A stretch of DNA of 35,810 nucleotides, from the NCBI GenBank assembly GCA_040381655.1, contig JBEIGW010000002.1, positions 1 to 35,810 on the forward strand, in the 5' to 3' direction. A program made the position numbers and the translations under genes. Within the stretch, counting starts at the first letter, position 1. Each line of letters opens with the position of its first letter. The stretch comes from Deltaproteobacteria bacterium (GTDB lineage Bacteria; Bdellovibrionota_B; Oligoflexia; Oligoflexales; RGVZ01). Under the pieces are notes generated by a model. The model ran no database searches. It saw nothing but the letters and a program-made list of their open reading frames with translations, and was not told the DNA's origin. Shown here in pieces: positions 2,069-28,410 of this stretch.

Positions 2069-2139
2069 GTAACGATCAGAGCTTTCAAAGAAATAAATGA
2101 GATTGCACAAGCTCCAAACCTACAAAAAATAGGAGCCCT

Positions 2140-8240: not shown

Positions 8241-8270
8241 TGAGCCACCTACAGGCTCAATATCTGAGCT
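8241..8270. promoter_or_regulatory. operator-like palindrome, site 1 (AGGCTCA-ATATC-TGAGCT) plus an extra upstream TGAGCC half-site
   Basis: Core at 8254-8270, with an additional TGAGCC at 8241-8246. It lies in the divergent intergenic region between 7788-8183(-) and 8312-8971(+). AATAAT/TAATCT -10-like sequence lies 11-13 nt downstream in the + direction. Confidence 0.65.
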
Positions 8271-9013: not shown

Positions 9014-10393
9014 ATGTCTGCAAGCCGTGATCCTGAATTTGAGTCATTAAAACTTCCACCGCACTCCCTTGAAGCTGAACAGTCTGTATTGGGTGGCTTG
9101 TTGTTAGACAACGCAGCATGGGACAGGATTGTCGATATCTTGAAAGAGTCCGATATCTATCGAGAAGATCATCGACTGATCTTTCGGCACATCGGTCAAT
9201 TAGTGTCTGCAGGTAAACCAGCGGATGTCATTACGGTATTTGAGTCGCTCCAGTCTGTCCATAAAGCCGCGGATATTGGTGGAGTTGGCTATTTGAATTC
9301 GCTTGCCCAGAATGTACCTTCCGCTGCCAATATTAGGCGCTATGCCGAATTGGTGCGCGATCGAGGGATTCTAAGAAAGCTGATCGGCATCGCTGACGAA
9401 ATTTCCAGCTCCGCATTCAATACCAAGGGTAAGCCAATAAACGAATTGTTGGACGAAGCTGAGGCAAAGATATTTTCCATTGCCGAAGAGGGGTCACGAG
9501 GCACAAAGGGGTTTGCAGACATCCAATCCTTAATGACTGGGGTCGTTGAGCGTATCGATGAGCTCTACAGCAGGGAGGGTGACAACGAGGTCACGGGGGT
9601 TCCTACTGGTTTCGCAGACTTGGACAAAATGACTTCTGGTTTGCAGGAGGGCGATCTGATCATTGTTGCCGGCCGCCCATCCATGGGAAAGACCGCTTTC
9701 TCAATCAATATTGGCGAGCATGTTGCGATGGATACGGGTTTGCCTGTGTTGGTATTCTCCATGGAAATGGGGGGATCGCAATTAGCCATGCGTATGCTGG
9801 GCTCAGTGGGGCGGTTGGATCAAAATCGACTTCGGACCGGACGTCTCAATGATGAGGATTGGCCACGTCTTACCCATGCCATTCAAAAACTCAACGAAAC
9901 ACAAATCTACATCGATGAGACACCGGCATTGACTCCAGTAGAGTTAAGGGCAAGAGCCCGAAGGCAGGCACGTCAATGTGGCAAGTTAGGATTGATTATT
10001 GTCGACTACTTACAGTTGATGTCATCGAACTCGCATGGCGAAAATAGAGCGACCGAGATCTCCGAGATCTCTAGAAATCTTAAAGGATTGGCGAAAGAGC
10101 TCAATTGCCCTGTGATTGCGTTATCGCAGTTGAATCGCTCTCTTGAACAACGACCAAACAAGCGTCCCATCATGTCGGACCTGCGTGAATCGGGTGCTAT
10201 TGAGCAAGATGCGGACTTGATTCTCTTTATCTATCGCGATGAGGTCTACAACCCGGACTCAGCAGATATAGGAACAGCAGAAATCATTGTTGGTAAGCAG
10301 AGGAATGGACCAATTGGGCATTGTCGTTTGACGTTTATTGGGCAATTTACAAAGTTCGAGAATTTCGTCAGCGGTGGGCCTACTTACAATTAA
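9014..10393 (+). CDS. dnaB: replicative DNA helicase DnaB
   Basis: 459 aa. N-terminal PPHSLEAEQSVLGGLLLDN, Walker A GRPSMGKTAF, Walker B LIIVDYLQLM, SQLNRSLEQR, and IVGKQRNGP. Normal length, so no intein. Confidence 0.95.
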   Translation: MSASRDPEFESLKLPPHSLEAEQSVLGGLLLDNAAWDRIVDILKESDIYREDHRLIFRHIGQLVSAGKPADVITVFESLQSVHKAADIGGVGYLNSLAQNVPSAANIRRYAELVRDRGILRKLIGIADEISSSAFNTKGKPINELLDEAEAKIFSIAEEGSRGTKGFADIQSLMTGVVERIDELYSREGDNEVTGVPTGFADLDKMTSGLQEGDLIIVAGRPSMGKTAFSINIGEHVAMDTGLPVLVFSMEMGGSQLAMRMLGSVGRLDQNRLRTGRLNDEDWPRLTHAIQKLNETQIYIDETPALTPVELRARARRQARQCGKLGLIIVDYLQLMSSNSHGENRATEISEISRNLKGLAKELNCPVIALSQLNRSLEQRPNKRPIMSDLRESGAIEQDADLILFIYRDEVYNPDSADIGTAEIIVGKQRNGPIGHCRLTFIGQFTKFENFVSGGPTYN

Positions 10394-10616: not shown

Positions 10617-11282
10617 TTAGTTTGCGTATTTTAAAAATGCACTACGTACGAATGGGTCGGTATTGGGCTGGTCCAGTAACCATCTTGCGTAATCTCTAGG
10701 CACCTCAGCGATTGGTGTGCCTTTGTGTTTCCCAAAGGGCATGTGCGTCGGTGTGCGCGCATCTTCCGATTTTTGCCAAAGTACTTCGATCGAATCGATG
10801 TCCCGTTCTTTGCAGATATGCTCGAGTATCGTTGCGCAAATTCGAACGTCTGCGCCTGCAGAGTGAGCATTCCGTAGACGCTGTTTAGCGTTCTTCCTAT
10901 CCAAAAAATAAAGTATGGCGCTTTGGCTATGGGATTGGAGTTCTGGCCAAACGGCCCTAGCCAAATTGAGTGTGCAAACCCGCCGCACATTGGGTGATCC
11001 AATAACAGCCCAGTCAAAATCGACATTGTGTCCGATTAGGTATTGAACGCCTTCAGGCAAATTAAATGAAGCCGAGGGCGGACAATCAGTCAGCTCTTCG
11101 TCAAGGATATGGTGAATAGCCAAGGCCGCCAAGCCGATTGATTTACTGGGCTTGTATCGGTGTTCAAAACACTCGCCAAAGATAAGAGGCGAAAGGGAGC
11201 GAAGTTCCAACCAGGCGGCTTCGATGATTTCTGGGGCATCAAGCCCCGTAGTTTCGGTATCAAATATGATTGCTTTAGACAT
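10617..11282 (-). CDS. DEDDh 3'-5' exonuclease, ExoX-like, with C-terminal FGKHKG...YxxWL tail
   Basis: 221 aa. Exo I IIFDTETTGL, Exo II LIGHNVDFDW, Exo III HSAGADVRI. The C-terminal MPFGKHKGTPIAEVPRDYARWLL resembles the small C-terminal domain of ExoX-type proteins. Confidence 0.85.
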   Translation of the reverse strand: MSKAIIFDTETTGLDAPEIIEAAWLELRSLSPLIFGECFEHRYKPSKSIGLAALAIHHILDEELTDCPPSASFNLPEGVQYLIGHNVDFDWAVIGSPNVRRVCTLNLARAVWPELQSHSQSAILYFLDRKNAKQRLRNAHSAGADVRICATILEHICKERDIDSIEVLWQKSEDARTPTHMPFGKHKGTPIAEVPRDYARWLLDQPNTDPFVRSAFLKYAN

Positions 11283-11290
11283 GGACTAAA

Positions 11291-11800
11291 TTATTCTGAT
11301 CTGGGAAAAATCCGCTCGTTTAATTTGTGCTCTTCATAGAAGCCTTTGAGCGTATCAACAAATTTTCGGATGCAAAAAATAAGGTTGGGCATGTTTAGGC
11401 CAAAGGGGTAGTAAATGACATGATTACCAATCAGTCCGACATCACCGTCATCCCACCGATGGGCAACGTATCGCACCATGAATCCTCGGTAGTTCGCGTT
11501 AGCTGAGATTCTCTGTATTTCTTCATCAGTGAGTTCGCTATTCAATGTCAAATGACCTCTGATCATCATCGATGCATAGTCTGGATAAAGGATGATGCGA
11601 AGGTTGATCCAAGTTCCCAAGACATACAGATCGCCGTCTTCCTCGAGTTTTGTTTCGTACCCAGCCTCCTCAAACCTGGCCTTCAATAGTTCACTGGTGA
11701 CGTTTTCACGTGCGATTTCACGGGCCATCTCAAGCTCCAATGGGATGTGCTTTTGCAGTGGCTGGGTTGGCAATTGCAGCAATTTGAATTTGTCGGTCAT
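11291..11800 (-). CDS. hypothetical protein, tentatively YbjN / T3SS-chaperone-like
   Basis: 169-aa ORF, 8 nt upstream of the exonuclease gene and 15 nt downstream of the Gly-rich gene. The family assignment is only an impression from EEAGYE...DGDLYV...I.LYPD. Confidence 0.6.
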   Translation of the reverse strand: MTDKFKLLQLPTQPLQKHIPLELEMAREIARENVTSELLKARFEEAGYETKLEEDGDLYVLGTWINLRIILYPDYASMMIRGHLTLNSELTDEEIQRISANANYRGFMVRYVAHRWDDGDVGLIGNHVIYYPFGLNMPNLIFCIRKFVDTLKGFYEEHKLNERIFPRSE

Positions 11801-11815
11801 GGCTTCCTATCATTG

Positions 11816-12148
11816 TTATCGGCGCGGCCAACGCTCTGAAGGCGGAAAAGGACGCATCGTTCGGGGATCAAGCCCCCGCGAGCGATCTCTGTCGATCGCA
11901 AGACCGCCGTCTGGGCCGATGGATAATCCACCGCCTGGACCGATCGATTGACCGCCACCTGGGCCAATCGACTGGCCGCCGCCTGGACCGATCGACTGTC
12001 CTCCTCCCGGGCCAATAGATTGACCGCCGCCCGGACCTATCGAATCACAACCGCCGGGGCCGATGGAGCCTGGGATGCAGTCGCGCCAAGCTTGGGCATG
12101 TGCCGATCCTAGGGTGAGTAAAGCAAGCGTGATCAAGATAGTTTTCAT
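11816..12148 (-). CDS. small secreted Gly-rich tandem-repeat protein (SIGPGGGQ x7) with basic C-terminal tail
   Basis: The track ORF runs to 12205. The start is reassigned to ATG 12148, giving MKTILITLALLTLGSAHA|QA, a Sec-type signal peptide with an AHA cleavage motif. Seven 8-aa repeats follow, then RDRSRGLDPRTMRPFPPSERWPRR. Confidence 0.7.
   Translation of the reverse strand: MKTILITLALLTLGSAHAQAWRDCIPGSIGPGGCDSIGPGGGQSIGPGGGQSIGPGGGQSIGPGGGQSIGPGGGLSIGPDGGLAIDRDRSRGLDPRTMRPFPPSERWPRR
11900..12067 (-). repeat. seven tandem 24-bp coding repeats (SIGPGG[GC][QDL])
   Basis: The units are read directly from the sequence. They differ mainly at synonymous third positions (Ser TCC/TCG/TCT, Ile ATC/ATA/ATT, Pro CCC/CCG/CCA). 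Confidence 0.9.
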
Positions 12149-12220
12149 GGTTAGGTAGCGTGCGTTTTTAAAATTGCAATATTGAGCGTGCAGTAAACAA
12201 ATCACAGTTTGACCTCTGCG

Positions 12221-12238
12221 AGGCTCATTTACTGAGCC
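12221..12238. promoter_or_regulatory. operator-like palindrome, site 2 (AGGCTCA-TTTAC-TGAGCC)
   Basis: Perfect 6+6 inverted repeat between the Gly-rich/ExoX operon (-) and the WYL-1 operon (+). GATAAT (12249-12254) lies exactly 10 nt downstream, and the WYL-1 ATG is at 12308 after an AGGGGGA SD. Confidence 0.75.
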
Positions 12239-12307
12239 AGGTAACCTAGATAATCAAATCTAACTATTTGATAACAATGACGGGTTTGGTTATTTCAGGG
12301 GGAATTC

Positions 12308-13279
12308 ATGGGCCGTACCGAGCGCCTGTATAAAATTCAGCGCTTGCTCAATAGCGGGCAGGCAGTCGCTATGGCTCGTTTCCTTGAGGCGCTAGAGATC
12401 TCCAAAGCGACATTCAAGCGCGATCTGGAATACCTGAGAGATCGGTTAGGTGCTCCCATCGTTTGGGATTCAGAGGCAAGCGGCTACCGGCTAGAGATTT
12501 CTGCTAACGAGCGCATCCATCCGCTACCAGGCCTTTGGCTCAATGAGCCTGAGATTTATGCGCTTCTAACGGGTATTGAATTGCTGGGAAATTTGGAGCC
12601 TGCACCGCTAATAGGGCGGCAGATCAGACCACTTAGAGAGCGACTTGAAAAAATCCTGGAGCTCGGTCAATTCTCGACAGAGGACATCCGACGCCGTATT
12701 CGCCTCGTGCCCATGGGAGCGCGTCAGCCTAGTAGCGAGCATTTTCAGGCGATTGCTCATGCGCTTCTGTCTCGCAAGCGCTTGAAACTTCGCCACTTCG
12801 GTAGGCTTGATGCTACGGTCACTGAGAGGGAAGTGTCGCCGCAGAGGCTAGTTTATTACCGCGATAATTGGTACCTGGATGCGTTTTGCCATCTGAGGGA
12901 CGATATACGATCGTTTTCAGTCGATGCGATTGAAGAGGCGACTCCAATTGATAAAAATGCCGTATCTGTGGACGATGTCGTACTCGCGACCGAGTTAGAT
13001 GCTGGCTATGGAATATTTTCCGGCGGGACGACAAAAGTCGCCAAACTTAAATTCTCGCCATTCAAGGCGAGGTGGGTGGCCCGTGAATACTGGCATAAAA
13101 ATCAAAAAGGTGAGATTTTGGACGATGGTAGCTACTTGCTCGACGTGCCATATTTCGATGATCGAGAGCTCATCAACGATATATTGCGGCATGGGAGTCA
13201 AGTTGAAGTGCTCGGCCCAGAAGAATTAAAAACTCGTTTGAAACAGGAAGCGCAGCTGATTTTGGCAAAGCTTCAGTGA
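12308..13279 (+). CDS. WYL-domain transcriptional regulator (wHTH-WYL-C-terminal extension), paralog 1
   Basis: 323 aa. N-terminal HTH RTERLYKIQRLL...ISKATFKRDLEYLRDRLGAPI, WYL signature SPQRLVYYRDNWYLDAFCHLRDDIRSFSVDAI, and a C-terminal extension YGIFSG...LKFSP..ARWVA...DDRELINDILRHGSQVEVLGPEEL. Confidence 0.9.
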   Translation: MGRTERLYKIQRLLNSGQAVAMARFLEALEISKATFKRDLEYLRDRLGAPIVWDSEASGYRLEISANERIHPLPGLWLNEPEIYALLTGIELLGNLEPAPLIGRQIRPLRERLEKILELGQFSTEDIRRRIRLVPMGARQPSSEHFQAIAHALLSRKRLKLRHFGRLDATVTEREVSPQRLVYYRDNWYLDAFCHLRDDIRSFSVDAIEEATPIDKNAVSVDDVVLATELDAGYGIFSGGTTKVAKLKFSPFKARWVAREYWHKNQKGEILDDGSYLLDVPYFDDRELINDILRHGSQVEVLGPEELKTRLKQEAQLILAKLQ

Positions 13280-13312
13280 TATTGAAATATCGCCAAATAA
13301 AAAGAAAAAATT

Positions 13313-13753
13313 ATGCTGCTTAGAATAATTGCCTACATCGCCAGCATCACTACAACCTGGCATCTGGTCGAATACGTATTCACACGGAATCAGATGGCTG
13401 GAATCTATCCGCCCGAGGCCGATAGTATCTCTATTCCGATCATCACAAACCAAGCACTGCTATTGGCGCTCGTAGTTTTGATTCTTCCTACTGCACTGTT
13501 AGGGAGTGCTTGGGTGATGAAAAAATTAAGCAGCTCCAGAACGCTTCTACAAATATTATTTTTGATACCTTGCGCCGGACTTTATGGGATCTCGATACTG
13601 ATTTGCATAAGTATGGCTCTTTCGTCTGCAGACGGAGCGCATTTCGAAATAGGAATGAGCTACGCTGTGATGTTAGCGTTGATCTCTGCAGCCCTTATTT
13701 TTGATGTAATCCGTCTTTATCGTCGTTTGTATAAAAAACAGATTCCTCAATAG
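13313..13753 (+). CDS. small integral membrane protein (about 4 TM helices)
   Basis: 146-aa ORF with four hydrophobic stretches: IIAYIASITTTWHLV, ALLLALVVLILPTALLGSAWV, LLQILFLIPCAGLYGISILICISMAL, and YAVMLALISAALIFDVI. It lies 33 nt after the WYL gene and 16 nt before the nuclease-helicase gene. Confidence 0.65.
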   Translation: MLLRIIAYIASITTTWHLVEYVFTRNQMAGIYPPEADSISIPIITNQALLLALVVLILPTALLGSAWVMKKLSSSRTLLQILFLIPCAGLYGISILICISMALSSADGAHFEIGMSYAVMLALISAALIFDVIRLYRRLYKKQIPQ

Positions 13754-13769
13754 GAAATCAGATAAAAAA

Positions 13770-16700
13770 ATGCAAAAAATAAACGGGCAAGTCATTTTTT
13801 CCGCCTCGGATCTTGTGCACTTCATGGAGTGTGAGCACCTAAGCATATTAGATCGCCTGCACTTGGATAAGCCTATGGAAAAGGCGAAAGATAGTGAAGA
13901 AGCTGAGCTGATTCAGAATCGAGGATTTGCCCATGAAAAAGCCTATCTCGAGAAGGCTAAAAGTACCGCAAAAAGCTATATAGACATTGCAAAAGCGGGA
14001 GAGTCACGTGATGCGAGAGTTGCGGCGACTGTCGTGGCAATGAAAGAAGGCGTAGATCTTATCTATCAAGCGGCTTTTTACCAGGCGCCGATGATTGGAT
14101 ATGCAGACTTCTTGAAGCGGGTGGACAAGCCGTCAAATCTTGGTCGCCATAGCTACGAAATTATTGATACAAAATTATCCAAAAAATCACGAGCGAAATT
14201 TATCATTCAGCTAGCGTTCTACGCAGATCTTTTGGAAGGGGTGCAAGGAATTGCGCCAGATTGCGTGTCCGTAGTTCTAGGCGACGGTTTTGAAGAAAAA
14301 TTTCAGCTTTCCGACTATCGCTACTATTACCAGTCATTGAAGCAGCGCTTTTTACAATTCCTGGCGAAATCTCAGGAGCAGGGGGTAGCAGAGTTTGCTG
14401 CATCTTCAAATCCATTTCCGTGTGATAAGTGCGATCTGTGCCATTGGCGGGATCGATGTAATAACTGGTGGGATGAAACTGACCATCTGACGCAAGTAGC
14501 AAATATCTTAAAAACACATATCCATAAACTTAATGCTGTTGGCATAAGTACGGTTGAACAATTGGCTAATGTGCCACCGAGCGCTCGAATTCTCAAAATT
14601 CCTGATCCAGTATTACAAAGGCTAAGGCATCAGGCCCAACTTCAGCATAAGGCAAAGACAACCGGAGAACGGTTTGTCGAGTTAATTACGGTTAATCCTG
14701 AGCAGACAGCCGAGCCGGGACCGCGAGGATTTGGCAGGCTCCCTAGGCCTTCACCGCATGACCTTTTTTTTGATATGGAGGGATTTCCCCATGTTGAAGA
14801 TGGCCTGGAATACTTGTTTGGGCTGTATTACATCGATGGATCTAATGGAGGTGTCTTTAAACCCTTTTGGGGACACGATCGCGCAGGAGAAAAGCGAGCC
14901 TTTGAAACTTGGGTAGATTTTGTTATTGGCCATCTTGATCAGCATCCAGAGGCACGTATTTACCATTATGCGGCCTACGAAAAAACGGCTTTACGTAAGT
15001 TGATGCGCCTACACGGGACGCGAGAAACAGAGATTGATCGCTTACTTAGAGAAAACAAGCTGGTGGATCTATATCAGGTTGTGCGAGAGGCTATTCGGAT
15101 TTCGGAGCGGTCATACTCCATCAAGTATGTTGAAAAATTTTATCTCGCTGGACGTAGTTCTGAAGTCAAATCGGCAGGATCGAGCATCGTTGCTTATCAA
15201 AAGTGGCGCGACAGTAATCCTAAAGAGCAAGTGATTCTCGATGAGATTGAAAAATACAATGAAGAAGATGTCATCTCCACCTTTGAGCTCTTGAGATGGC
15301 TCCATAAGCAGAAACCCACGGGCTTACTTTGGTACGGAGAACATCTTGATGACGCCTCGTTAGAGCTCAACGGGGGTCGATCTGAAAAAGCACTGACATT
15401 TGAGAAGCGACTAGCAACTTTATATGCCCAATTAAGCCACCATATTCCTGAAGATATATCAGTACGAAACGCTTTGCAAATTCATGCGTCTGTTGTTCGA
15501 GATCTACTAGATTTTCATCGACGTACTACCAAGCCACAGTGGTGGGCTGTATTCGATCGTCAAGCAAAGAGTTTTGAAGAGCGTGTAGAGGAAGTAGATT
15601 GCGTCGCAGGTGCTTGGCCATTGGAAAATTGTCCACCAGTGCCGGAAAAGCAGTCCCTACGTTATACCTATCAATATCCTGCACAAGAGATCAAACTTAA
15701 GACAGGCGACAACGTTGTATTGGTAGATAGCCTAATGGGTTTATCCGACTTCACGGTGGATCCAGAGCAAAGAGTTGTGACTTTCAAGCTAGGTAAAAAG
15801 CGCGAATTTACGCCTGGAGCTATCGACATTGGCGCTGGCACGCCTATCGATCAAGGGGTTCTCCAGAATGCACTGTTTCGTTATGCTGAAAGCTTGATAC
15901 AAGCGCTTAATGCCAGAGCAGTCAATCCTTACGCCGCCATCGATGCGCTAATACGCCGTGAGTTTCCCGCAGTTTCAGGCATTGAGTCCGGAGCGCCTCT
16001 CCTCACTGCAAATGCTAATGTCAGCGATATTGCCTCAGTGATCAGACGGCTTGATCACAGCGTGATCTTTATTCAGGGGCCGCCGGGGGCAGGGAAGACC
16101 TACACCGCCTCGCATGTGATACTGGATTTACTGAAAGCGGGTAAACGCATAGGGGTATCTTCAAACAGCCATAAGGCTATCGTCAACTTGCTGGAGGCCG
16201 TAGAGAAGGAAGCCAAAGATTGTGGTTTCACGTTCAGTGGCGTGAAAAAATCTGACCCACTAGACGAATCTCAGTGTGTTAACGGCGAGTACATCAAAGA
16301 TATAAAAGATAAAGAAGGAATCATCGCGGCTGACGCTCAGCTCGTTGCCGGGACAGCTTGGCTTTTTGCGGACCAAGAATTTGATCAACAGTTTGATTAT
16401 CTGTTTGTCGATGAGGCAGGCCAAGTCGCCCTAGGTATGCTAATTCCTATGGCTACTTCAACAAAAAACATCGTGCTGCTTGGCGACCAGATGCAGTTAT
16501 CCCAGCCGGTAGAAGGGGTGCATCCGGGAAGTTCGGGGGACTCGGTGCTGGATTATTTATTACAAGGTGAATCCACGATCGCCTCGAATAGAGGTATCTT
16601 CCTCGAGAAAACTTGGCGTATGCATCCTGAGGTATGCGATTTCATTTCTGAAGCGATCTACGACGGAAGATTGGATTCGCATCCAAAAACAAAAAATAGA

Positions 16701-17258
16701 TTCATCGTATGTGGTAAGGAAGCGGATCCCGCTTTGCGGTCATGTGGGATAGTTTTTGAATCTGTACACCACAATGGGTGCTCACAAGACAGTGATGAGG
16801 AGGCAGCCAGGGTGAAAGAAATCTACGATAGCTTGCTGCAGCAAAGCTATGTCGATGACAAAGGAGTTCATCGCCAGATCATGCCTGAAAACATTCTAGT
16901 GGTCTCTCCTTACAATATGCAGGTGAATCTGCTGAAGCAATATCTCGGCAGTGAAGCCAGAGTAGGAACGGTTGATAAGTTTCAGGGGCAGGAGGCAGAA
17001 GCAGTCATCATTTCTATGGCTACGTCGAGCGGCGAGGATTTACCGCGCAATATTGATTTCTTATTTAGCAAAAATCGATTAAACGTGGCCATATCCCGAG
17101 CTAAATGCTTAGTTATTCTGGTAGCTTCTCCCATGCTTCAAGCTGTGAATTGCCGAACCCCAGAACAAATTCGCTTAGTGAATACCATTTGCTGGGTTAG
17201 CCAGTATTCTAAATTGCGTCCACACTCTACAGAAAAACAAAATTATTTTTTGGATTAG
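13770..17258 (+). CDS. RecB/Cas4-like PD-(D/E)xK nuclease + RNase-H-like domain + Upf1/Dna2-like SF1B helicase fusion (TM0106-type)
   Basis: 1162 aa. N-terminal FMECEH...GYADFL...EIIDTKLS...QLAFYADLL plus the Cys cluster CDKCDLCHWRDRC (Cas4/AddB-type Fe-S arrangement). Middle block FFDMEGFP...YHYAAYEKTAL...YNEEDVIST. Helicase motifs IQGPPGAGKTYT, YLFVDEAGQ, LLGDQMQLSQP, VDKFQGQEAEAVIISM, and LNVAISRAKCLVILV. Confidence 0.9.
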   Translation: MQKINGQVIFSASDLVHFMECEHLSILDRLHLDKPMEKAKDSEEAELIQNRGFAHEKAYLEKAKSTAKSYIDIAKAGESRDARVAATVVAMKEGVDLIYQAAFYQAPMIGYADFLKRVDKPSNLGRHSYEIIDTKLSKKSRAKFIIQLAFYADLLEGVQGIAPDCVSVVLGDGFEEKFQLSDYRYYYQSLKQRFLQFLAKSQEQGVAEFAASSNPFPCDKCDLCHWRDRCNNWWDETDHLTQVANILKTHIHKLNAVGISTVEQLANVPPSARILKIPDPVLQRLRHQAQLQHKAKTTGERFVELITVNPEQTAEPGPRGFGRLPRPSPHDLFFDMEGFPHVEDGLEYLFGLYYIDGSNGGVFKPFWGHDRAGEKRAFETWVDFVIGHLDQHPEARIYHYAAYEKTALRKLMRLHGTRETEIDRLLRENKLVDLYQVVREAIRISERSYSIKYVEKFYLAGRSSEVKSAGSSIVAYQKWRDSNPKEQVILDEIEKYNEEDVISTFELLRWLHKQKPTGLLWYGEHLDDASLELNGGRSEKALTFEKRLATLYAQLSHHIPEDISVRNALQIHASVVRDLLDFHRRTTKPQWWAVFDRQAKSFEERVEEVDCVAGAWPLENCPPVPEKQSLRYTYQYPAQEIKLKTGDNVVLVDSLMGLSDFTVDPEQRVVTFKLGKKREFTPGAIDIGAGTPIDQGVLQNALFRYAESLIQALNARAVNPYAAIDALIRREFPAVSGIESGAPLLTANANVSDIASVIRRLDHSVIFIQGPPGAGKTYTASHVILDLLKAGKRIGVSSNSHKAIVNLLEAVEKEAKDCGFTFSGVKKSDPLDESQCVNGEYIKDIKDKEGIIAADAQLVAGTAWLFADQEFDQQFDYLFVDEAGQVALGMLIPMATSTKNIVLLGDQMQLSQPVEGVHPGSSGDSVLDYLLQGESTIASNRGIFLEKTWRMHPEVCDFISEAIYDGRLDSHPKTKNRFIVCGKEADPALRSCGIVFESVHHNGCSQDSDEEAARVKEIYDSLLQQSYVDDKGVHRQIMPENILVVSPYNMQVNLLKQYLGSEARVGTVDKFQGQEAEAVIISMATSSGEDLPRNIDFLFSKNRLNVAISRAKCLVILVASPMLQAVNCRTPEQIRLVNTICWVSQYSKLRPHSTEKQNYFLD

Positions 17259-17260
17259 AT

Positions 17261-17671
17261 ATGTATTTACGCAATTTATATTTCAAAGACCTTGATGTGC
17301 TTCGTCAATTCTCTCAGTCTGTTAATTTAAATTTGCTTTTGAAATATGTAGAAAATATTGATCAAGCACAAGATGCGGAAAATGCATTTAAAAAAATACA
17401 AAAAGAATTGAATAAAATTTTGCCACCATCAGGTGGAGGTAAATTTTTTGATAAAGATTATCCAGATGGCGCTTTAAGCTTTGATGTTGTCTTGAGTAAA
17501 AATGAGAGGATTGCATTAAAAAATTTTTCCGAAAATATAGGATTGGAATCGCTCGTTGATCATTTTCATGACACATCTCTAGCTAATAATGCGATGCGAA
17601 CTATGCAAGCTATTTTTGATGCGTTAATTTTTGGAGATATGTTCGATGATGAGGGGAATTTAAAAATATAA
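17261..17671 (+). CDS. hypothetical protein (AT-rich, translationally coupled to the nuclease-helicase gene)
   Basis: 136-aa ORF. Its ATG lies 2 nt after the helicase stop (TAGATATG, 17256-17263). No motif recognised. Confidence 0.6.
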   Translation: MYLRNLYFKDLDVLRQFSQSVNLNLLLKYVENIDQAQDAENAFKKIQKELNKILPPSGGGKFFDKDYPDGALSFDVVLSKNERIALKNFSENIGLESLVDHFHDTSLANNAMRTMQAIFDALIFGDMFDDEGNLKI

Positions 17672-17703
17672 ATTTTATCGTATATATTTTTACATAAGTT
17701 CAT

Positions 17704-18135
17704 TTGATTATCGGAGGAGTTTTGAAAAAATCTTTAACTGAAAAAGTTGACCTTCTAGAGATTTCTAAGGTGCTTACCGAAGTCGAAGAGATACGAAGTG
17801 TAATTTCTGAAAATGTTAGTGAAGAAGAATTTAAAAAAACTTTAAAACAAGTAAAAGAGGGAAAGCTCGACGGTTTTCGAGGCGAAGTCATATACGGATT
17901 CATTGAGGACTGTATACGCGAGGGAGGAGAAGAGGTTGATTCCTTTAGCATAAATCGGGGCGGAATCGACCATCAAGTTGAATTAGTTATTTATGAATAC
18001 TTCGGAATTTATTTTATCGAGGGAATGTACCTTGATCCAATTGGATATTTTTATACGAAAGAAGCTGCAATTTCCTTTGCTTACCATCATTGGAATAAAG
18101 ATAAAAAAACGCAAGATTGGCGCCAGGATTTATAG
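17704..18135 (+). CDS. hypothetical protein (AT-rich)
   Basis: 143-aa ORF with a TTG start at 17704, or TTG at 17722 preceded by GGAGGAG (17713-17719). No motif recognised. Confidence 0.5.
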   Translation: MIIGGVLKKSLTEKVDLLEISKVLTEVEEIRSVISENVSEEEFKKTLKQVKEGKLDGFRGEVIYGFIEDCIREGGEEVDSFSINRGGIDHQVELVIYEYFGIYFIEGMYLDPIGYFYTKEAAISFAYHHWNKDKKTQDWRQDL

Positions 18136-18225: not shown

Positions 18226-18702
18226 CTACATATCTTTTCTGTAAACCAAAACAGATTTCTTGAGAATCTCTTGGTGTTCTTCAAAACGCTTTTTCTGATT
18301 TTGCTTGGCCATTAATATAGCTTCCATTGTCGCTGTCCTGACTGGTATTCCATCAATACTGCCAGCCTTTGAAAGCACCATCAAATCGTCAATCAAATCT
18401 GAACCAGCAAAAGATAGATGTAAGGTGACGCCCTCAAGGTTAGGTACATCATTCGATGGTTTTCGAAATGCAAAAGCGTGTGAATCCATGATCAGATCTT
18501 TTGCATGGTTCTTGTTGATGACAATTAATGCTTCTGGGTGATTGTCCGGCGTACTGGCACTGAGTAAGTCTTGGGGGATGCTGTTAGGTTTTTCCTTCAG
18601 CATAAAAATGTTTTCGCTAACAACGACGAAATCCCCTTGCTTAAAACTCGCAAGGCAGCGCTTTACTTCGCTAAAGCCAACCACATAAGATTCGATTAGC
18701 AT
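18226..18702 (-). CDS. hypothetical protein, last gene of the vWA/transglutaminase-like operon
   Basis: 158-aa ORF whose ATG lies 9 nt after the transglutaminase-like gene stop. No motif recognised. Confidence 0.6.
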   Translation of the reverse strand: MLIESYVVGFSEVKRCLASFKQGDFVVVSENIFMLKEKPNSIPQDLLSASTPDNHPEALIVINKNHAKDLIMDSHAFAFRKPSNDVPNLEGVTLHLSFAGSDLIDDLMVLSKAGSIDGIPVRTATMEAILMAKQNQKKRFEEHQEILKKSVLVYRKDM

Positions 18703-18711
18703 GTCATTACC

Positions 18712-20616
18712 CTAGTTCGATTGGTTTGTCGAGAATACTACCGACGTACGATGGTCTGCCCGTATGGTGCGAATAGCCTCAAGTAGCTCAGGATACATTT
18801 CAGGTGTGCACTTACGACTCGGATATTGAAATATTAATTTTCTGGTGATTTCCAATGACTGTCCCTCCAATTGGTACTCGGAGGTGTATTGAATATGCTT
18901 GGATTCATAACTAGCGTTTACCGGCAAGGATTCGATGCTGATATGGTCTGGTAGTTGAATCGAGTACTTGTCTTCGGTGGTGTTGGAATCGCAGACATAA
19001 GAAAACACTTTAGTATCAAGAGGTTTGTAGATGGTCATGGATGCGATATGACCCGGGGATACGCCGACAGGTGGGATGAACGCCCCTTTTTTTCTCAAAT
19101 CAGTAATGGAATCAAGCTTGAATGTCGATTGCCATGTAAATGGCGCTTCAATATTTTTAGGCGATGTATAGTTGATATTTCCTGAGCCAATTTCATTAAA
19201 TCGATACAGCATATCGTTGACCGTCTTCTCCATTGATTCCGTCATTTCCGAGAATCTCGCTAATCGATAATTGATCTCCATGGTTCCTGTAAGCACAGAA
19301 TCATTTTTACCTTCTACACTTCCATCAGAATGAATCTTCATATGCGTGTGGGACGTGAGCTTGTTTTCATCAGCAAACATCTTCGGCGTCCTGCCGTAAC
19401 GATTTAGCGACACAAGGACAGTCGGCTTATCAATGACTTGGTCATCGAGTTTGCCGAATGGGACAAATTGGGCTGTAGAGTCGAGATATAAGTCGAGGGA
19501 AGGTATGTAGGTGAGTACGTGATTGATTGGGCTATGGCCAGCCGGACCTTCTGGTAATTCAAAAGCATCGCCAAGGTTGATCAGTGCAGCTGTACTTTCA
19601 ATGCCGACTGCCCTAAGCATTGCTTCTAGAAGAACTACATGATCTTTGCAGTCTCCGAATCTGCGATTGAATATATAAGCAGAGTCACGAGGGACGAGTC
19701 CGCCGTCATCGACGGTCGTTGAAATATAGCGGATATTTTTTGAGACCCAAGTATAAAGTGCCTTTGCTTTTTCTTGATCTGTAATTGCATTGGCAGCTAA
19801 ATCATGGGCAAACTTCGAAATCTCGGGAGTAACTCGAACTTTTTGTTTAGAAGCTTTCTGGTATTGACGGCCGATATCCAGATAGTCTTTTGCTTGAGTG
19901 ATGATGACAAAGGGTGAGGAATCTGAGCTATCGACGCTGCCATCTTCTTTTTTTTGTGCAACTGCTTGCTGAATTTGGTAATGATAGACGATGTGCTTTT
20001 TTGATTCCGATACTACGCCTCCAGAAAATCCACGATGATTTACCATCAAATTTAATGATTTTGGTACCTTGATCGTAAGTTGAGCGTCTTCATACACCAG
20101 GTGCGGTGACAAGCCAAATTTCAAATCAAATTCACCTGGTTTTTCTGGTTTGAAATGTCTCATGCGGTATTTGCTGCGCAGGCGGCTACCAATTTCTACT
20201 TGCGGAAATACAATGGTGGTCGTGGTTTTATCGTCAAAGTGTCGTCCATTCCTCTGTTCACCTTCTGACCGCTTGATCCAATCCGGCGCAAGATGAATAG
20301 ACTTTCCGTTTGGTAGCAAGCTGCTGGCCGAGAGGATCTTGAAAGATTCTTGTGTGGATTTTGTTTCAAAGACATGATTTCCAAGAAAATCAACGCCATA
20401 CTCTGAAACAATACGTGTCACACGCTCAACTGTTTCGGAATATCTCCCGCGTTCATCAATATCGATATAACGATGTACTTTTTCATGAACAATGGGCGGA
20501 TCGTAGGGTACTGCCAATACAGCTGGTACTGCTGCGATTCCTGCAAGGATTAAAAATAACTTGGCGTATATCCGGATCATAGGTTGTTCTTTTTTCTCTT
20601 GATGATTTTTATCCAT
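18712..20616 (-). CDS. exported transglutaminase-like protein (DUF3857-like N-terminal region + transglutaminase core)
   Basis: 634 aa. Signal-peptide-like MIRIYAKLFLILAGIAAVPAVLA (the start may be Met13 at 20580). The catalytic-Cys context RRFGDCKDHVVLLEAMLRAVGI is typical of bacterial transglutaminase-like cysteine proteases. Confidence 0.8.
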   Translation of the reverse strand: MDKNHQEKKEQPMIRIYAKLFLILAGIAAVPAVLAVPYDPPIVHEKVHRYIDIDERGRYSETVERVTRIVSEYGVDFLGNHVFETKSTQESFKILSASSLLPNGKSIHLAPDWIKRSEGEQRNGRHFDDKTTTTIVFPQVEIGSRLRSKYRMRHFKPEKPGEFDLKFGLSPHLVYEDAQLTIKVPKSLNLMVNHRGFSGGVVSESKKHIVYHYQIQQAVAQKKEDGSVDSSDSSPFVIITQAKDYLDIGRQYQKASKQKVRVTPEISKFAHDLAANAITDQEKAKALYTWVSKNIRYISTTVDDGGLVPRDSAYIFNRRFGDCKDHVVLLEAMLRAVGIESTAALINLGDAFELPEGPAGHSPINHVLTYIPSLDLYLDSTAQFVPFGKLDDQVIDKPTVLVSLNRYGRTPKMFADENKLTSHTHMKIHSDGSVEGKNDSVLTGTMEINYRLARFSEMTESMEKTVNDMLYRFNEIGSGNINYTSPKNIEAPFTWQSTFKLDSITDLRKKGAFIPPVGVSPGHIASMTIYKPLDTKVFSYVCDSNTTEDKYSIQLPDHISIESLPVNASYESKHIQYTSEYQLEGQSLEITRKLIFQYPSRKCTPEMYPELLEAIRTIRADHRTSVVFSTNQSN

Positions 20617-20693
20617 TGGTCACTACATCCATGGAAGAAGCGACCTAGATTATTTATATATTCGTACATCTTTTGAACGATTTTGGATTGCTG

Positions 20694-20722
20694 AGGCATG
20701 GGCGTTCTGCTTGCCCATGCCT
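20694..20722 (-). terminator. 10-bp GC-rich hairpin between the vWA and transglutaminase-like genes (attenuator/terminator candidate, no U-tract)
   Basis: AGGCATGGGC-gttctgctt-GCCCATGCCT, 44 nt downstream of the vWA stop on the minus strand. No T-run follows on either strand. Confidence 0.35.
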
Positions 20723-20765
20723 ACAGACGATGATCGTTGAATCACTTCAAGCTTTTTTGGCGAAT

Positions 20766-23075
20766 TTAGAGGTTTTGCCTAATGATCAATTCATTAAAGT
20801 CTAGTGTCTTAGGATCATCTTCCAGTGTGCCCCAGCGATCTTCATGAACCTCTGGCAAACAGGCGCTGAGACGATCATGGATTTCGTCTTTTATGTCGTC
20901 CTGTAAGACGGAAAGAGTATGGTCTAACAGTCGCTTGACCTGCCGAGGGGCGACCTTTGTGTGGTCCAAGGCGCCGATGAGCCAGTCGAGGAATACAGCC
21001 CATGCGAGAACGCGATCATTGAGCTCGGTAGAAATTACACCGATCAGCTCTTCAATCTCCGATGGCAAGCCACAATTCAAAAAGCGGGTGATGGCATCTT
21101 CAAAGTCAGTGTAAGTTAGTGCCACATCCTCCAAGATAGACAATAAGGCCATTGGCTCAATGCCGAACATCTCAGGATCAGCTTGCCGCCGCATATAGCT
21201 GGGAGTCTCGGAGCTTGAAAGGAATTGAGCCATTTTGGACGATCGTAGTGGGGCAGAATATGCCATCGAATACAACACCCTGCTAGCTGATATCTGCACT
21301 GGCCGGACCGATCCCAATCCATGCCAACCGGCGGCCACCATTTGCTGTATTTGGTGCGGTTCTGGTAAACCTAGTGCTTTGTCATCCGAGACACGTTGAA
21401 CTACCATGAAGAGGTTGGTGTGCTCGGTAACGAGCTGATACTTTATTGCTATCTGACTTGCAGCTTCGGTGTCGGCAGCATCACGCAACAGTTTGGCACC
21501 TACGATTCGTGTGAGTGTGGATGTTGTCGGGGCTAAATCTAATCCGGCCTGAGGGGCTGCTGCGCCGTCAGTAGTTGACGACAAGATGAGGTTGATTGCA
21601 GCAGCAGTAACTACCGGCACTTCGCTGGGCTTGTCTTCAAGAATTGCAGCTAGATGGATCATCTCTCCTGGGTAGACGACTTTCGGGACTGGGGAGTGCC
21701 AGACAACTGACGTATGCCAATTTACAGATAGTCCGGCCACGATGCCTTGGCGCATTCGGTTAACCATGCGCTGCATAGCCGCGGCCATGTCCTCATTCGG
21801 TGACACAAACGCGCAAGCGCCATCACTATGTTCAGTAATCTCGCGCAGCAGACTTTCAGCTGGGGAGCTACCTACGCCAATCGCAAAGATTCTATGATTG
21901 GATTCCCTAGCAGACTGAATGATATTCTCAATATCCCAGACCTCGCCGTCCGTAATTAACAGTACATTGACCGGCCGCTCTCTGCGCTCACTCGTGATGT
22001 TGAATGTGTCCGTTAGTGCAGCATGCATCTCCGTGCCACCGAGATCGGCGGAGGTTTTATCAATGGCAGGCTCCAGAGATTTTGCCTTGAACTCAGTCGT
22101 TGCTGATGTGAGTTTCCCAACCACGCGACGGGGCTGGCTGCCAAACAGGCTGTAAGAGACTTTGTCTGCAGAGCTCAATAATGGCATGAGCGTCCTCAAG
22201 CCATTGCGTGCAAGCTCAATACTGTCACCTTCCATCGATCCCGAGCAGTCAACCAAGATCTTCAACTCAATTTCGGAAGAAAGTGTATTGGCCTCTTCAT
22301 TGAATACAGGAGTAAAACTTAATAGTGCTGGATACTCATCACCGTCCTTTGCCAGGGAAAAAACACCTTGGCTTTGAACGTCATCAATGACGATGACCAG
22401 ATCGCGATCGAGATAGCCTTCTCGACTCATGCTGACTACGGACTGATCATTGTCGTTGTGAATACTGGTTTGATGACTCGGGCAACTGATCGTACCTTTT
22501 GCAAGGTCTCCACCAATAGTAAGAGTCAATGACAATGGATAAGAAGCTGCGAGACTGGCATCCACAGAAGCAGGTTTTTTTAATTTGCCTGTTTTGAAGG
22601 GATCGCCATAACGAGGCGCGACAGTTGTTGGGATAGACAGACGCACCTGGCCTTGTTCGATTCTCAGCAATTGCGCGTATTCGATTTCAATCATGGCCTC
22701 TTCATCAGGCTTTAAGTTGCCCATGTGAGCCGTATATAGACCTTCGCCTGATTTCTCGACCATGATCGGCGTGTCGCCTTCTTTAATAGCCTTCTCGTAA
22801 TTTTCTTCGGCTTCAGTTTTCGGTAGAACAGTACCTTGCCAGGTTTTTCCTGCCATCGTAGCGGTCAGGCCCAGTAACGTACATTCCCAAGCCAACGGAA
22901 AGGTATAAATCGTCTCGATATTCTTCTTTGTCGTGTTCTTATAAAACTGACGTGCCTTAACTGTGAAAAGTAGGCCATCAACGCTTGCTACGATGTCGAC
23001 CTTTTGCAGCAGTACAGGCTGACCTTTCGTTCCTTCAAGTATGGATTTTTGAATTGTTTCGGTGGATGCAGACAT
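20766..23075 (-). CDS. VIT + von Willebrand factor A domain protein with unknown ~300-aa C-terminal region
   Basis: 769 aa with a GAGGT SD. The N-terminal VIT-like region is VDIVASVDGLLFTVKARQFYKN...YTFPL...EKSGEGLYTAHMGNLKPDEEAMIEIEY. The vWA MIDAS motif is LVDCSGSMEG, followed by ...LITDGEVW. No signal peptide. Confidence 0.85.
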   Translation of the reverse strand: MSASTETIQKSILEGTKGQPVLLQKVDIVASVDGLLFTVKARQFYKNTTKKNIETIYTFPLAWECTLLGLTATMAGKTWQGTVLPKTEAEENYEKAIKEGDTPIMVEKSGEGLYTAHMGNLKPDEEAMIEIEYAQLLRIEQGQVRLSIPTTVAPRYGDPFKTGKLKKPASVDASLAASYPLSLTLTIGGDLAKGTISCPSHQTSIHNDNDQSVVSMSREGYLDRDLVIVIDDVQSQGVFSLAKDGDEYPALLSFTPVFNEEANTLSSEIELKILVDCSGSMEGDSIELARNGLRTLMPLLSSADKVSYSLFGSQPRRVVGKLTSATTEFKAKSLEPAIDKTSADLGGTEMHAALTDTFNITSERRERPVNVLLITDGEVWDIENIIQSARESNHRIFAIGVGSSPAESLLREITEHSDGACAFVSPNEDMAAAMQRMVNRMRQGIVAGLSVNWHTSVVWHSPVPKVVYPGEMIHLAAILEDKPSEVPVVTAAAINLILSSTTDGAAAPQAGLDLAPTTSTLTRIVGAKLLRDAADTEAASQIAIKYQLVTEHTNLFMVVQRVSDDKALGLPEPHQIQQMVAAGWHGLGSVRPVQISASRVLYSMAYSAPLRSSKMAQFLSSSETPSYMRRQADPEMFGIEPMALLSILEDVALTYTDFEDAITRFLNCGLPSEIEELIGVISTELNDRVLAWAVFLDWLIGALDHTKVAPRQVKRLLDHTLSVLQDDIKDEIHDRLSACLPEVHEDRWGTLEDDPKTLDFNELIIRQNL

Positions 23076-23187
23076 TTTTACCTCACGAGTAAGTGGGATA
23101 CATCAATCAGATTAGTAACTGGATCAAGCACTGCCTTAAAGTAGGTAGAGCGTGTGTTGCAAGGTGTGATTCGCGGCCTACATAAAA

Positions 23188-23577
23188 TTATTGATTGAAC
23201 ATTGCCGGTTCGCGACCGACGACGTGTGAGCCTGGATCATCAATGTGGGCAACGGAGGAGGGTCCATTGGGGATGAGCCAAGCACAGGGAAGAGTGAGTC
23301 CGCCGAACATGGATTCGTACACACAAAAATCCACCCAGCACAATTCCCCGCCTACCTGCGCGCGGCCCGTTAAGCCTAGTCGTGTCCATTGATCTACCAG
23401 AGCTGCGATACCAGAAGGGCTCATAGCGCCGTCACGCAGCAAATACTGGTCATGCCACACTCGTCCCCCAATCAAATGGGCATGGTCTTTCAAACAACGC
23501 TCCCAACCGCCGGGATATTTGGCGCGTATTGCGCTGATGTTGACGATGAAGTCGATGAATTCGGTCTGAATCGCCAT
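23188..23577 (-). CDS. hypothetical protein (GC-richer), downstream of palindrome site 3
   Basis: 129-aa ORF with a GAGG SD 6 nt upstream of the ATG. No motif recognised. Confidence 0.65.
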   Translation of the reverse strand: MAIQTEFIDFIVNISAIRAKYPGGWERCLKDHAHLIGGRVWHDQYLLRDGAMSPSGIAALVDQWTRLGLTGRAQVGGELCWVDFCVYESMFGGLTLPCAWLIPNGPSSVAHIDDPGSHVVGREPAMFNQ

Positions 23578-23654
23578 GGCTAGCCTCGGTCAGTTATAGA
23601 TTTGTAAATAAACACGCATCATCGTGCGCGTTAAGAATCGTTATACCGACCATC

Positions 23655-23672
23655 AGGCTCAAAGACTGAGCT
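23655..23672. promoter_or_regulatory. operator-like palindrome, site 3 (AGGCTCA-AAGAC-TGAGCT)
   Basis: An 11/12 match. On the minus strand, TATAAC (23645-23640) lies 10 nt from the core and points at the 129-aa ORF. Confidence 0.7.
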
Positions 23673-23698
23673 AGCAAATTTTCACAAAAATATATTTC

Positions 23699-23716
23699 TG
23701 GCTCAACTAATGAGCC
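23699..23716. promoter_or_regulatory. operator-like palindrome, site 4 (TGGCTCA-ACTAA-TGAGCC)
   Basis: Perfect 6+6 match. TATACT (23727-23732) lies 10 nt downstream and points at the SprT-like gene (ATG 23779). The centre of this site is 44 bp from the centre of site 3. Confidence 0.75.
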
Positions 23717-25340: not shown

Positions 25341-25404
25341 TAAATTTTCCTCATATTTTAACCACCGGCCTAGGATCACTCCAGAGTTAACGAGCTTAAA
25401 GACC

Positions 25405-28392: not shown

Positions 28393-28410
28393 AGGCTCAT
28401 CAAGTGAGCC
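28393..28410. promoter_or_regulatory. operator-like palindrome, site 5 (AGGCTCA-TCAAG-TGAGCC)
   Basis: Perfect 6+6 match in the 488-bp divergent region between the 449-aa/ATPase operon (-) and the PLD-SNF2/MTase operon (+). AAGAAT (28383-28378, minus strand) lies 10 nt from the core. The weaker CATCAT (28421-28426) lies 10 nt away on the plus side. Confidence 0.75.

Follow-up and report, generated by a model that had tools for sequence, protein, structure and literature searches.

We analysed a 35,810-nt stretch of DNA from a Deltaproteobacteria bacterium (GenBank assembly GCA_040381655.1, contig JBEIGW010000002.1, positions 1 to 35,810 of the forward strand), hereafter called the window, which contains a unit of five same-strand open reading frames (ORFs) preceded by a palindromic operator. 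In order, these encode a WYL-domain regulator (WYL-1), a membrane protein with four putative transmembrane segments (4-TM protein), a large nuclease-helicase and two small proteins (Table 1). An earlier interpretation of the letters alone, the sequence-only reading, had described these five ORFs, their spacing and the lack of hairpins between them. All five were present with intergenic gaps of 33, 16, 2 and 32 or 50 nt, no terminator-like hairpin was found on the + strand in any gap of the operon, and the proposed translational junction between the enzyme stop codon and the start of small ORF 1 (TAGATATG, 17256-17263) was located. The start of small ORF 2 had to be revised. The most likely initiation codon is the TTG at 17722, which gives the 50-nt gap, because it is preceded by a GGAGGAG Shine-Dalgarno sequence and agrees with the N-termini of the homologues. 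Past the last ORF the fold z-score was -0.6 and no convincing hairpin could be recognised, so an intrinsic terminator at the operon end was rejected. The GC content of small ORF 1 (30.7%) and small ORF 2 (35.7%) is well below the 46-51% of the other operon genes.

Table 1. Coordinates of the operon, its domains and the operator-associated features of the window.
Feature	Position	Strand	Description
Operator	12222-12238		Perfect 6+5+6 inverted repeat GGCTCA-TTTAC-TGAGCC, 17 bp; fronts WYL-1
Predicted -10 hexamer	12249-12254	+	GATAAT, 10 nt downstream of the operator
WYL regulator (WYL-1)	12308-13279	+	323 aa
Membrane protein (4-TM)	13313-13753	+	146 aa
Nuclease-helicase	13770-17258	+	1162 aa
Cas4/AddB-type PD-(D/E)xK nuclease domain	13800-14462	+	PDDEXK_1 8e-6; D113, D132-T-K134, Q147..Y151
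RNase H-like fold, DEDD 3'-5' exonuclease clade	14763-15302	+	PF13482 RNase_H_2 2e-23
Upf1/IGHMBP2/Dna2-like SF1B helicase core	16038-17168	+	IGHMBP2 PDB match 6e-21
Small ORF 1	17261-17671	+	136 aa; start 2 nt past the enzyme stop codon
Small ORF 2	17722-18135 (alternative start 17704)	+	137 aa from the revised TTG start
Operator	8254-8270		1 mismatch; fronts 225-aa gene and dnaB; -10 at offset 11
Operator	23656-23672		Divergent region; fronts 129-aa, VIT-vWA, transglutaminase and 158-aa genes (-)
Operator	23700-23716		Fronts SprT-like gene (+); TATACT at offset 10
WYL-2	24363-25379	-	WYL-1 paralogue, 47% identity
Operator, exact copy	28394-28410		Between PDC-M61A/B and WYL-2 (-) and HKD-Snf2 and type IIG restriction-modification gene (+)

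The three-part build proposed for the enzyme, a PD-(D/E)xK nuclease, an RNase-H-like block and an SF1B helicase, was borne out by profile matches and conserved motifs. Residues 11-511 aligned with positions 2-462 of the 462 positions of TIGR03491 (E 8e-92), and the score of 308.6 bits, against a curated cut-off of 97.45, places the protein in the COG2251/TM0106 family ('TM0106 family RecB-like putative nuclease'), here joined to an SF1B helicase. The helicase part matched the Pfam models AAA_12 (2e-31) and AAA_11 (8e-17), had IGHMBP2, Upf1/NAM7, Sen1 and Dna2 as its top PDB matches, and carries a Walker A motif (GPPGAGKT, 769-776), DEAGQ (880-884), GDxxQL (904-909) and motifs V and VI. The resulting order of DUF83/PD-(D/E)xK, PF13482 RNase H-like and tandem AAA helicase domains is the one under which COG2251 was catalogued in 2014, when its middle domain was assigned to a 3'-5' exonuclease clade and the family was left uncharacterised (PMC3985635). 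When 76 homologues from many phyla were aligned, the motifs expected for catalysis in both nucleases and in the helicase all proved to be conserved. For the DEDD fold, D335-x-E337 and D500 were retained in at least 95% of the homologues and D433 fell within a conserved V-D-L block. Among the Cas4/AddB-type cysteines that had been suggested, C21, C221, C224 and C230 were conserved in at least 80% of the sequences and C218 was not. Because the catalytic residues, the Fe-S cysteines and the helicase motifs are kept across these homologues, the enzyme is probably active.

The N-terminal cysteine, the CxxCx5C motif and the PD-(D/E)xK core together give the enzyme a likeness to Cas4 in fold and motifs. 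The PADLOC Cas4 match was marginal (E 5e-3) and no cas genes occurred among the window ORFs scanned, no dedicated CRISPR-array search having been made, so the surroundings are not those of a Cas4 locus. We also compared the enzyme with three families of nuclease-helicases. Nhi, which the sequence-only reading had given as an example, was discarded, as PDLC02372 (E 1.4e-3) matched a single 40-residue patch around Walker A (residues 755-796, profile positions 191-231 of 470). The helicase half matched the PADLOC MkoA, MkoC and DpdJ models; the MkoA and MkoC matches were confined to residues 850-1133 and no PLD domain was found in the protein or the operon, and membership of Mokosh was rejected. 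Likewise, the protein was not assigned to Dna2, since PDB entry 5eaw aligned at residues 1037-1120 only and the enzyme has an additional DEDD domain.

WYL-1 has the helix-turn-helix (HTH)-WYL-WCX architecture of its class. The WYL (PF13280, 5e-20) and WCX (PF25583, 3e-15) domains passed the Pfam cut-offs, and the N-terminal HTH_11 (E 3e-3) and HTH_DeoR (E 5e-3) matches were weak and below them. W188-Y189-L190 and R201-x-F203 could be read directly from the sequence. The nearest solved structures were PafBC (6sj9, 1e-18), PafC and DriD (2e-5, WYL-WCX part only); BrxR (7t8k, 4e-3) and a chain deposited as 'WYL domain-containing protein' (7tb5, 6e-3) were marginal. Single-stranded DNA (ssDNA) is the ligand of the WYL domain in DriD (PMC9186387), PafBC (PMC11804915) and CapW (PMC11662680), and by analogy with these relatives, together with the WYL and RxF motifs, WYL-1 may also sense ssDNA. 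The protein is 99%, 90% and 86% identical across syntenic relatives. Its paralogue in the window, WYL-2, has a near-identical recognition helix, ATFKRDLEY(L/M)RDR, and for this reason the two regulators probably read the same operator.

The operator ahead of WYL-1 belongs to a recurrent element with the extended consensus (C)AGGCTCA-N5-TGAGCCTG. Allowing up to two mismatches, six copies were counted in the window against 1.1 expected, a number attained by none of 100 shuffles, and five of the six lie in promoter regions. The sixth, at 24520, is located in the coding sequence of WYL-2, has one mismatch and no -10 at the right distance, and is probably inert. Alignment of the WYL upstream regions of four relatives (L081-L084) showed the palindrome as a conserved island amid diverged intergenic DNA, and it is the best-conserved intergenic element upstream of WYL-1 in the close relatives. 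The operator also adjoins orthologues in L005, L007, L011, L012, L088, L091 and L095. In Sulfuricella (L005) it stands directly before the enzyme, with no WYL gene within the flanks of about 6 kb on each side; the order in Craterilacuibacter (L011) is operator, enzyme, WYL; and in Malikia (L007) and a gammaproteobacterial metagenome-assembled genome (L012) it adjoins the WYL orthologues.

We then considered where the operator stands relative to the promoter. Sites were oriented toward the gene, and a -10-like hexamer had to match TATAAT at four or more of its six positions, the A in second and the T in sixth place being obligatory. Such a hexamer started 10 or 11 nt past the operator in 16 of the 21 oriented sites, and every other offset from 0 to 29 yielded one at no more than a single site. 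Upstream of WYL-1, the ATAAT of the predicted -10 is kept in L082, L083 and L095. On this geometry the operator would cover about -39 to -23 relative to the predicted transcription start, in place of a -35 element, and no -35 consensus could be read by eye at its position. A simple sigma-70 promoter using the TTGACC at 12209 as -35 was rejected, as about 32 nt separate it from any -10, which is too long. A site overlapping -35, at a constant distance from the -10 and with no -35 consensus, is the arrangement of DriD- and PafBC-type promoters. Because the spacing between operator and -10 is fixed at unrelated promoters and the -35 hexamer is absent, we infer that the WYL protein is an activator rather than a simple autorepressor, and that WYL-1 would be under positive feedback. 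The sequence-only reading had proposed that WYL-1 is autoregulated: the gene does sit behind the operator, and simple autorepression fits the geometry less well than activation.

A repressor of the CapW/BrxR kind, which shuts off its own operon and leaves the DNA upon binding ssDNA, is a less likely interpretation that deserves to be weighed at this point. Both CapW and BrxR share the wHTH-WYL-WCX architecture, and their targets are palindromes of about 20 bp (PMC11662680, PMC9122601). A protein bound at the operator could block RNA polymerase, given the overlap with the core promoter, and a regulator as first gene of its operon is typical of autorepressed defence operons. However, a spacing of 10-11 nt that is constant at unrelated promoters, combined with the missing -35, characterises activator-type promoters (PMC13004042), and a repressor has no need of such fixed phasing. 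Moreover, the BrxR and 7tb5 matches of WYL-1 are far weaker than that to PafBC. Taken together, these points make repression somewhat improbable.

The close relatives with conserved synteny are uncultured Oxalobacteraceae. L081 (enzyme 93% identical) carries the WYL gene, the 4-TM gene, an inserted methyltransferase gene, the enzyme gene and a homologue of small ORF 1 (54% identical); L082 (82%) has WYL, 4-TM and enzyme genes and nothing further; and in L083/L084 (76%) WYL and enzyme genes are followed by toxin-antitoxin genes. In L088 (65%) the order is a homologue of the 225-aa gene, WYL, enzyme, a small ORF 2 homologue and a small ORF 1 homologue, and the operator occurs once, ahead of the first three of these. 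The WYL-enzyme pair thus keeps a stable, syntenic position across relatives of 65-95% identity, and since some relatives keep WYL and enzyme without the accessory genes, the conserved unit is operator, WYL and enzyme, and the five genes are not one obligate system. The proposal of an operator-fronted unit held, as a conserved set, for the WYL gene with the nuclease-helicase, and the 4-TM gene and the small ORFs are often missing. The insertion in L081 (6614-7909) is an AT-rich (34% GC) gene for a 431-aa class I methyltransferase between the 4-TM gene and the enzyme, and therefore the operon interior tolerates cargo insertion. In L095 (7451-10906) the enzyme appears as two ORFs of 410 and 740 aa, which could reflect a frameshift, a pseudogene or an assembly error.

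Searches with the enzyme returned 5146 homologues at E<=1e-10, ranging over many phyla from Proteobacteria to Chloroflexota, Actinomycetota and Cyanobacteria, and length and architecture were common to all of the 120 best listed. The family is carried on 74 plasmids. No full-length copy was found in phage records, and a phage or prophage origin was rejected on that account. To describe the genomic context we took 79 representative distant loci with about 6 kb of flank on each side of the enzyme. A WYL gene lies within this distance in 26 of the 79, in 13 of them adjacent to the enzyme and mostly divergent, which makes WYL the top family among immediate neighbours and the sole recurrent partner. 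The second most frequent arrangement, in about 10 loci (L010, L053, L059, L063 and about six more), places an McrB-like (AAA_5) gene and McrC behind the enzyme on its own strand, often with a WYL gene upstream; five of these loci have a gap of 0-20 nt, and most others one of up to about 900 nt. It is possible that WYL, nuclease-helicase, McrB and McrC form a four-gene system; the McrBC census paper contains no mention of the COG2251 family. Other close neighbours, of kinds usual in defence islands, were Wadjet JetD, BREX BrxC/D, type I restriction-modification (RM), Mrr, Zorya ZorD, dGTPase, PDC-S02 and RmuC, the last in five loci. The defence context that the sequence-only reading had invoked is real for many homologues, which are mostly located in such islands. 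On plasmid pSA2 of Novosphingobium resinovorum (L087, 93547-104616), a divergent WYL-enzyme pair is located beside an SOS-response-associated peptidase (SRAP), AlkB, DinB and an error-prone polymerase (DnaE2).

Within the window, the operator is predicted to drive at least four further transcription units (Table 1). The site at 8254 is kept at the same place in L081, L082, L083 and L095, and dnaB (9014-10393) lies 42 nt behind the uncharacterised 225-aa gene that it fronts. A replisome gene under the operator parallels the control of dnaG by DriD. The sites at 23656 and 23700 are conserved in L081 and L082. On the - side of the former, TATAAC can be seen by eye at offset 10 and fails the strict T6 requirement; the unit apparently starting there (within 18226-23716, -) comprises genes for a 129-aa protein, a VIT-vWA protein (769 aa), a DUF3857-transglutaminase (634 aa) and a 158-aa protein. 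The SprT-like gene in the opposite direction (+, 195 aa) matches the phage family phrog_6361 (E 2e-39). The operator at 28394 has -10-like hexamers at offset 10 both ways. Around it, the segment 24363-35493 holds WYL-2, matches to PDC-M61 A and B, an HKD(PLD)-Snf2 helicase (1131 aa) and a type IIG restriction-methyltransferase (1119 aa); the last gave a PADLOC E of 6e-276, and PDC-M61 is a PADLOC candidate system.

With moderate confidence, we interpret the locus as an inducible DNA-degrading module that ssDNA would switch on through the WYL activator and that stands between defence and repair. WYL-1, possibly with WYL-2, would dimerise on the 17-bp palindrome, which would stand in for the -35 element at 10 nt from the -10 hexamer that follows it. 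As in DriD and PafBC, ssDNA lodged in the WYL domain, coming from DNA damage, phage replication or plasmid entry, would let the regulator recruit RNA polymerase to this otherwise weak promoter. The transcript would cover the regulator, which provides positive feedback, the membrane protein and the enzyme, and in the window also the two optional small proteins. The enzyme would then load on ssDNA or DNA ends and move 5'->3' by its SF1B motor, the tracked strand being cut by the Cas4/AddB-type Fe-S nuclease and the other strand trimmed by the DEDD 3'-5' exonuclease. It would thereby act as a one-polypeptide functional analogue of AddAB, RecBCD or Dna2 and most likely destroy invading or damaged linear DNA, a defence against mobile elements that overlaps with end processing. 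Within this account, the neighbours of the enzyme, its carriage on plasmids, its pairing with McrBC and the presence of restriction and candidate-defence genes behind further operator copies incline us toward defence, about as strongly as we hold the account itself. A broader proposal is more tentative, and we regard it as doubtful: some Burkholderiales, and it seems further Beta- and Gammaproteobacteria too, may possess a PafBC/DriD counterpart of their own, in which one or two paralogous WYL activators, on sensing ssDNA, would act through the palindrome on a mixed regulon of immunity (nuclease-helicase, type IIG RM with HKD-Snf2, PDC-M61) and of a damage and replication checkpoint (dnaB operon, SprT-like protease, small membrane protein). 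On this proposal COG2251, matched by more than 5000 database proteins at E<=1e-10, would count as a very widespread defence effector encoded by one gene and so far overlooked, with McrBC as its natural partner. In all of this, anatomy, conservation, linkage and promoter geometry are observations, and ssDNA sensing, activation, the activities of the enzyme and its biological role are inferred.

Several points weigh against the module as proposed. The choice of activation over repression was made from promoter geometry, and CapW and BrxR repress although they have the same domains (PMC11662680). The palindrome could be bound by WYL-1, by WYL-2, by both of them or by some other factor, and the WYL-1 orthologue locus L008 has no recognisable operator. 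The SprT-like gene and the dnaB operon give the regulon a repair-like context, as do the surroundings of the pSA2 pair, unlike those of most other loci, and stable synteny is less typical of fast-turnover defence genes. Furthermore, no experimental study of the COG2251/TM0106/PF13482 enzyme family was found in the literature searched, and no PADLOC v2 profile spans the enzyme end to end, the matches covering the helicase half or short patches only.

Several of these observations would suit a module for repair or tolerance of DNA damage, in which the WYL protein is a local PafBC/DriD, the enzyme, in the manner of Dna2, AddAB or AdnAB, resects broken ends or processes stalled forks of the host genome, and the membrane protein is a damage-induced division inhibitor like DidA and SidA. 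WYL-1 is closest to PafBC and DriD and its promoter has the geometry of DriD's (PMC13004042); the regulon includes the SprT-like gene and the dnaB operon, and DriD likewise controls dnaG, recA and recJ (PMC9186387); and the first target described for DriD, DidA, is itself a small protein of the membrane (PMC9186387). In addition, an ExoX-like exonuclease gene is divergent from WYL-1, SRAP, AlkB, DinB and DnaE2 flank the pSA2 pair, RmuC recurs as a neighbour, and the locus is stably syntenic in its clade. Nevertheless, defence genes rather than repair genes dominate the neighbours of the 79 loci, a repair cluster was present in one inspected locus only, the enzyme family is patchy in distribution and plasmid-borne, and the operator also fronts the type IIG RM with HKD-Snf2 and PDC-M61. 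A dedicated repair function is for these reasons unlikely, slightly more so than repression, and the DNA-degrading module on the border of both functions, with a leaning to defence, is the interpretation that we retain.

The accessory genes were examined separately. The 4-TM protein has three strong hydrophobic segments (48-66, 81-99 and 115-133) and a weaker N-terminal fourth, in agreement with the four transmembrane helices that had been predicted, and holds a conserved loop, AGIYPPEADSISIPI. Neither Pfam, PADLOC, NCBIfam nor PHROGs has a family for it, for either small ORF or for the 158-aa and 169-aa neighbours. The 4-TM family comprises 76 clusters among 5.8 billion. Its gene separates WYL from the enzyme in L081, L082 and L095, follows a WYL-1 orthologue without the enzyme in L094, stands alone behind its own operator in L091-L093, and is not present in L083 or L088. 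The L091 contig has five operator copies in 9.6 kb, which front the 4-TM gene, an operon ending in a homologue of the 158-aa gene (51% identity) and a WYL-1 orthologue. Because the gene has its own operator copy where it stands alone, it is better explained as a lineage-restricted direct member of the same regulon. By analogy, the protein could be a damage-induced division inhibitor like DidA/SidA or a membrane effector.

The low GC content that had led the sequence-only reading to call the two small ORFs compositionally foreign was confirmed. They are not random ORFs, however, since the optional pair recurs in other genomes. Small ORF 1 has four homologous clusters among 5.8 billion, and the three that were looked up (P0122, P0123 and P0124; P0121 was left out) all lie directly downstream of the nuclease-helicase. 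Its AF2 model (pLDDT 84.6, pTM 0.79) is mostly helical and gave no Foldseek match against PDB at E<1. Small ORF 2 has a homologue in L088 that is 70% identical and precedes the small ORF 1 homologue, in swapped order; L090 holds the pair in the same order as L088, and gene sizes and order in two JGI contigs, judged without the DNA, also fit the pair. The AF2 model of small ORF 2 (pLDDT 87, pTM 0.78) is a helical bundle with a beta-sheet, for which Foldseek returned nothing at E<=0.001 against PDB and BFVD; we regarded the resemblance of uncharacterised phage proteins of about 70 aa to its beta-sheet half (TMt 0.6, E 0.04) as uninformative. The 24 remote relatives of small ORF 2 among 1.8 billion representatives showed no common family in a Pfam scan. 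Two such relatives form a tandem pair (134 and 139 aa) on an unrelated contig of 52% GC (L096, 181-1103), and therefore the fold family exists outside the nuclease-helicase context. We conclude that the small ORFs are real, confidently modelled proteins, a conserved but optional pair, which might modulate the enzyme or constitute a selfish cassette of two genes, and that the slot downstream of the enzyme behaves as a cargo hotspot, as toxin-antitoxin genes occupy it in other relatives. An obligate five-gene system with the membrane and small proteins as essential subunits or immunity factors, which the tight spacing and nearly abutting stop and start codons, the small-ORF pair downstream of the enzyme at every homologue looked up and the 4-TM gene between WYL and enzyme in several relatives might suggest, is highly improbable. 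None of the three accessory genes occurs in L083/L084 or in most of the 79 distant loci, the small ORFs are missing from L082 and the 4-TM gene from L088, and L081 combines an inserted methyltransferase with a single small ORF. In addition, L091-L094 carry the 4-TM gene without the enzyme, and the downstream slot accepts other cargo.

Two other groups of genes complete the window. Divergent from WYL-1 (10617-12148, -) are genes for a secreted GPGG(G/L)(Q/L)SI-repeat protein, a 169-aa protein and an ExoX/DEDDh-like exonuclease with a QSregVF_b tail. The repeat protein and 169-aa genes are kept beside WYL-1 in the relatives inspected; the ExoX-like exonuclease is found in L081 and L095 and was not seen in L082, L083 or L088. 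At the left end (899-4002), one gene encodes a DUF2130 protein (E 1e-88) and another a protein of 620 aa whose C-terminal part is a YacP-like NYN nuclease domain.

The enzyme family was already annotated and the regulator class already known. Three findings are new relative to the literature searched: a module of WYL regulator, operator and nuclease-helicase; an operator sequence that, in Beta- and Gammaproteobacteria, keeps a fixed spacing like that of DriD sites; and a compact regulon in which two paralogous WYL proteins would govern a mixture of genes for defence, replication and repair. The settings described so far for WYL proteins that sense ssDNA are PafBC in Actinobacteria, DriD in Caulobacter and the defence repressors CapW and BrxR, and the locus suggests a fourth with traits of both kinds. 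Because operator and fixed geometry are legible in the sequence, co-regulated genes can be predicted in any related genome. COG2251/TM0106, annotated in thousands of genomes and also on plasmids, gains a hypothesis of function as an ssDNA-induced, one-polypeptide degrader of DNA ends, and the locus touches on the question of whether immunity of the restriction type is inducible by damage. Should the enzyme prove to restrict phages or plasmids, a common gene would be added to the known defences and its repeated pairing with McrBC would be explained; should it act in repair instead, it would represent a bacterial Dna2 analogue under SOS-independent control.

Comparison with known systems places the enzyme and the regulator in different company. 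Like Nhi and Mokosh MkoA/MkoC, the enzyme joins nuclease and helicase domains of the kind found in defence proteins, with an SF1 Upf1-like motor, but those proteins have other nuclease domains and the enzyme has no PLD domain. Its likeness to Dna2, AddAB and Cas4 lies in the four-cysteine Cas4/AddB-type nuclease and the C-terminal SF1B helicase, combined in one chain as in Dna2; it differs from Dna2 by the DEDD 3'-5' exonuclease fold between the two and by a match that covers the last helicase motifs only. With CapW-CBASS and BrxR-BREX the locus shares a WYL-WCX regulator heading, or divergent from, a defence-type effector, a palindromic operator and defence-island surroundings (PMC9122601). 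CapW is released by ssDNA (PMC11662680). Both of these regulators repress, however, whereas the geometry of the window suggests an activator, and the effector is a single nuclease-helicase instead of CBASS or BREX.

PafBC, a heterodimer that acts by sigma adaptation in Actinobacteria, is the best PDB sequence match to WYL-1. It is activated by ssDNA, and an element directly upstream of the -10 (the -26 element) replaces the -35 (PMC11804915); WYL-1 and WYL-2, as two paralogous WYL proteins, recall PafB and PafC. The PafBC motif is asymmetric and read by one HTH, whereas the palindrome suggests a dimer with both HTHs on the DNA, and WYL-1 and WYL-2 are 11 kb apart, neither fused nor adjacent. 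DriD, the SOS-independent damage activator of Caulobacter crescentus, has low sequence similarity to WYL-1 and a different operator sequence. In contrast to WYL-1, which appears to lie behind its own operator-promoter, DriD is not self-regulated, and restriction genes, candidate defence genes and a nuclease-helicase, all in the regulon of the window, have not been reported for DriD. The two proteins nevertheless are similar in length (327 aa for DriD and 323 aa for WYL-1) and share WYL and WCX domains. Their sites are alike in being palindromes that overlap -35 and keep an unvarying spacing to the -10 of promoters lacking a -35 element (PMC9186387, PMC13004042), and in both cases several promoters are involved, among them those of a replisome gene (dnaG for DriD, the dnaB operon in the window) and of a small membrane protein, which for DriD is DidA.

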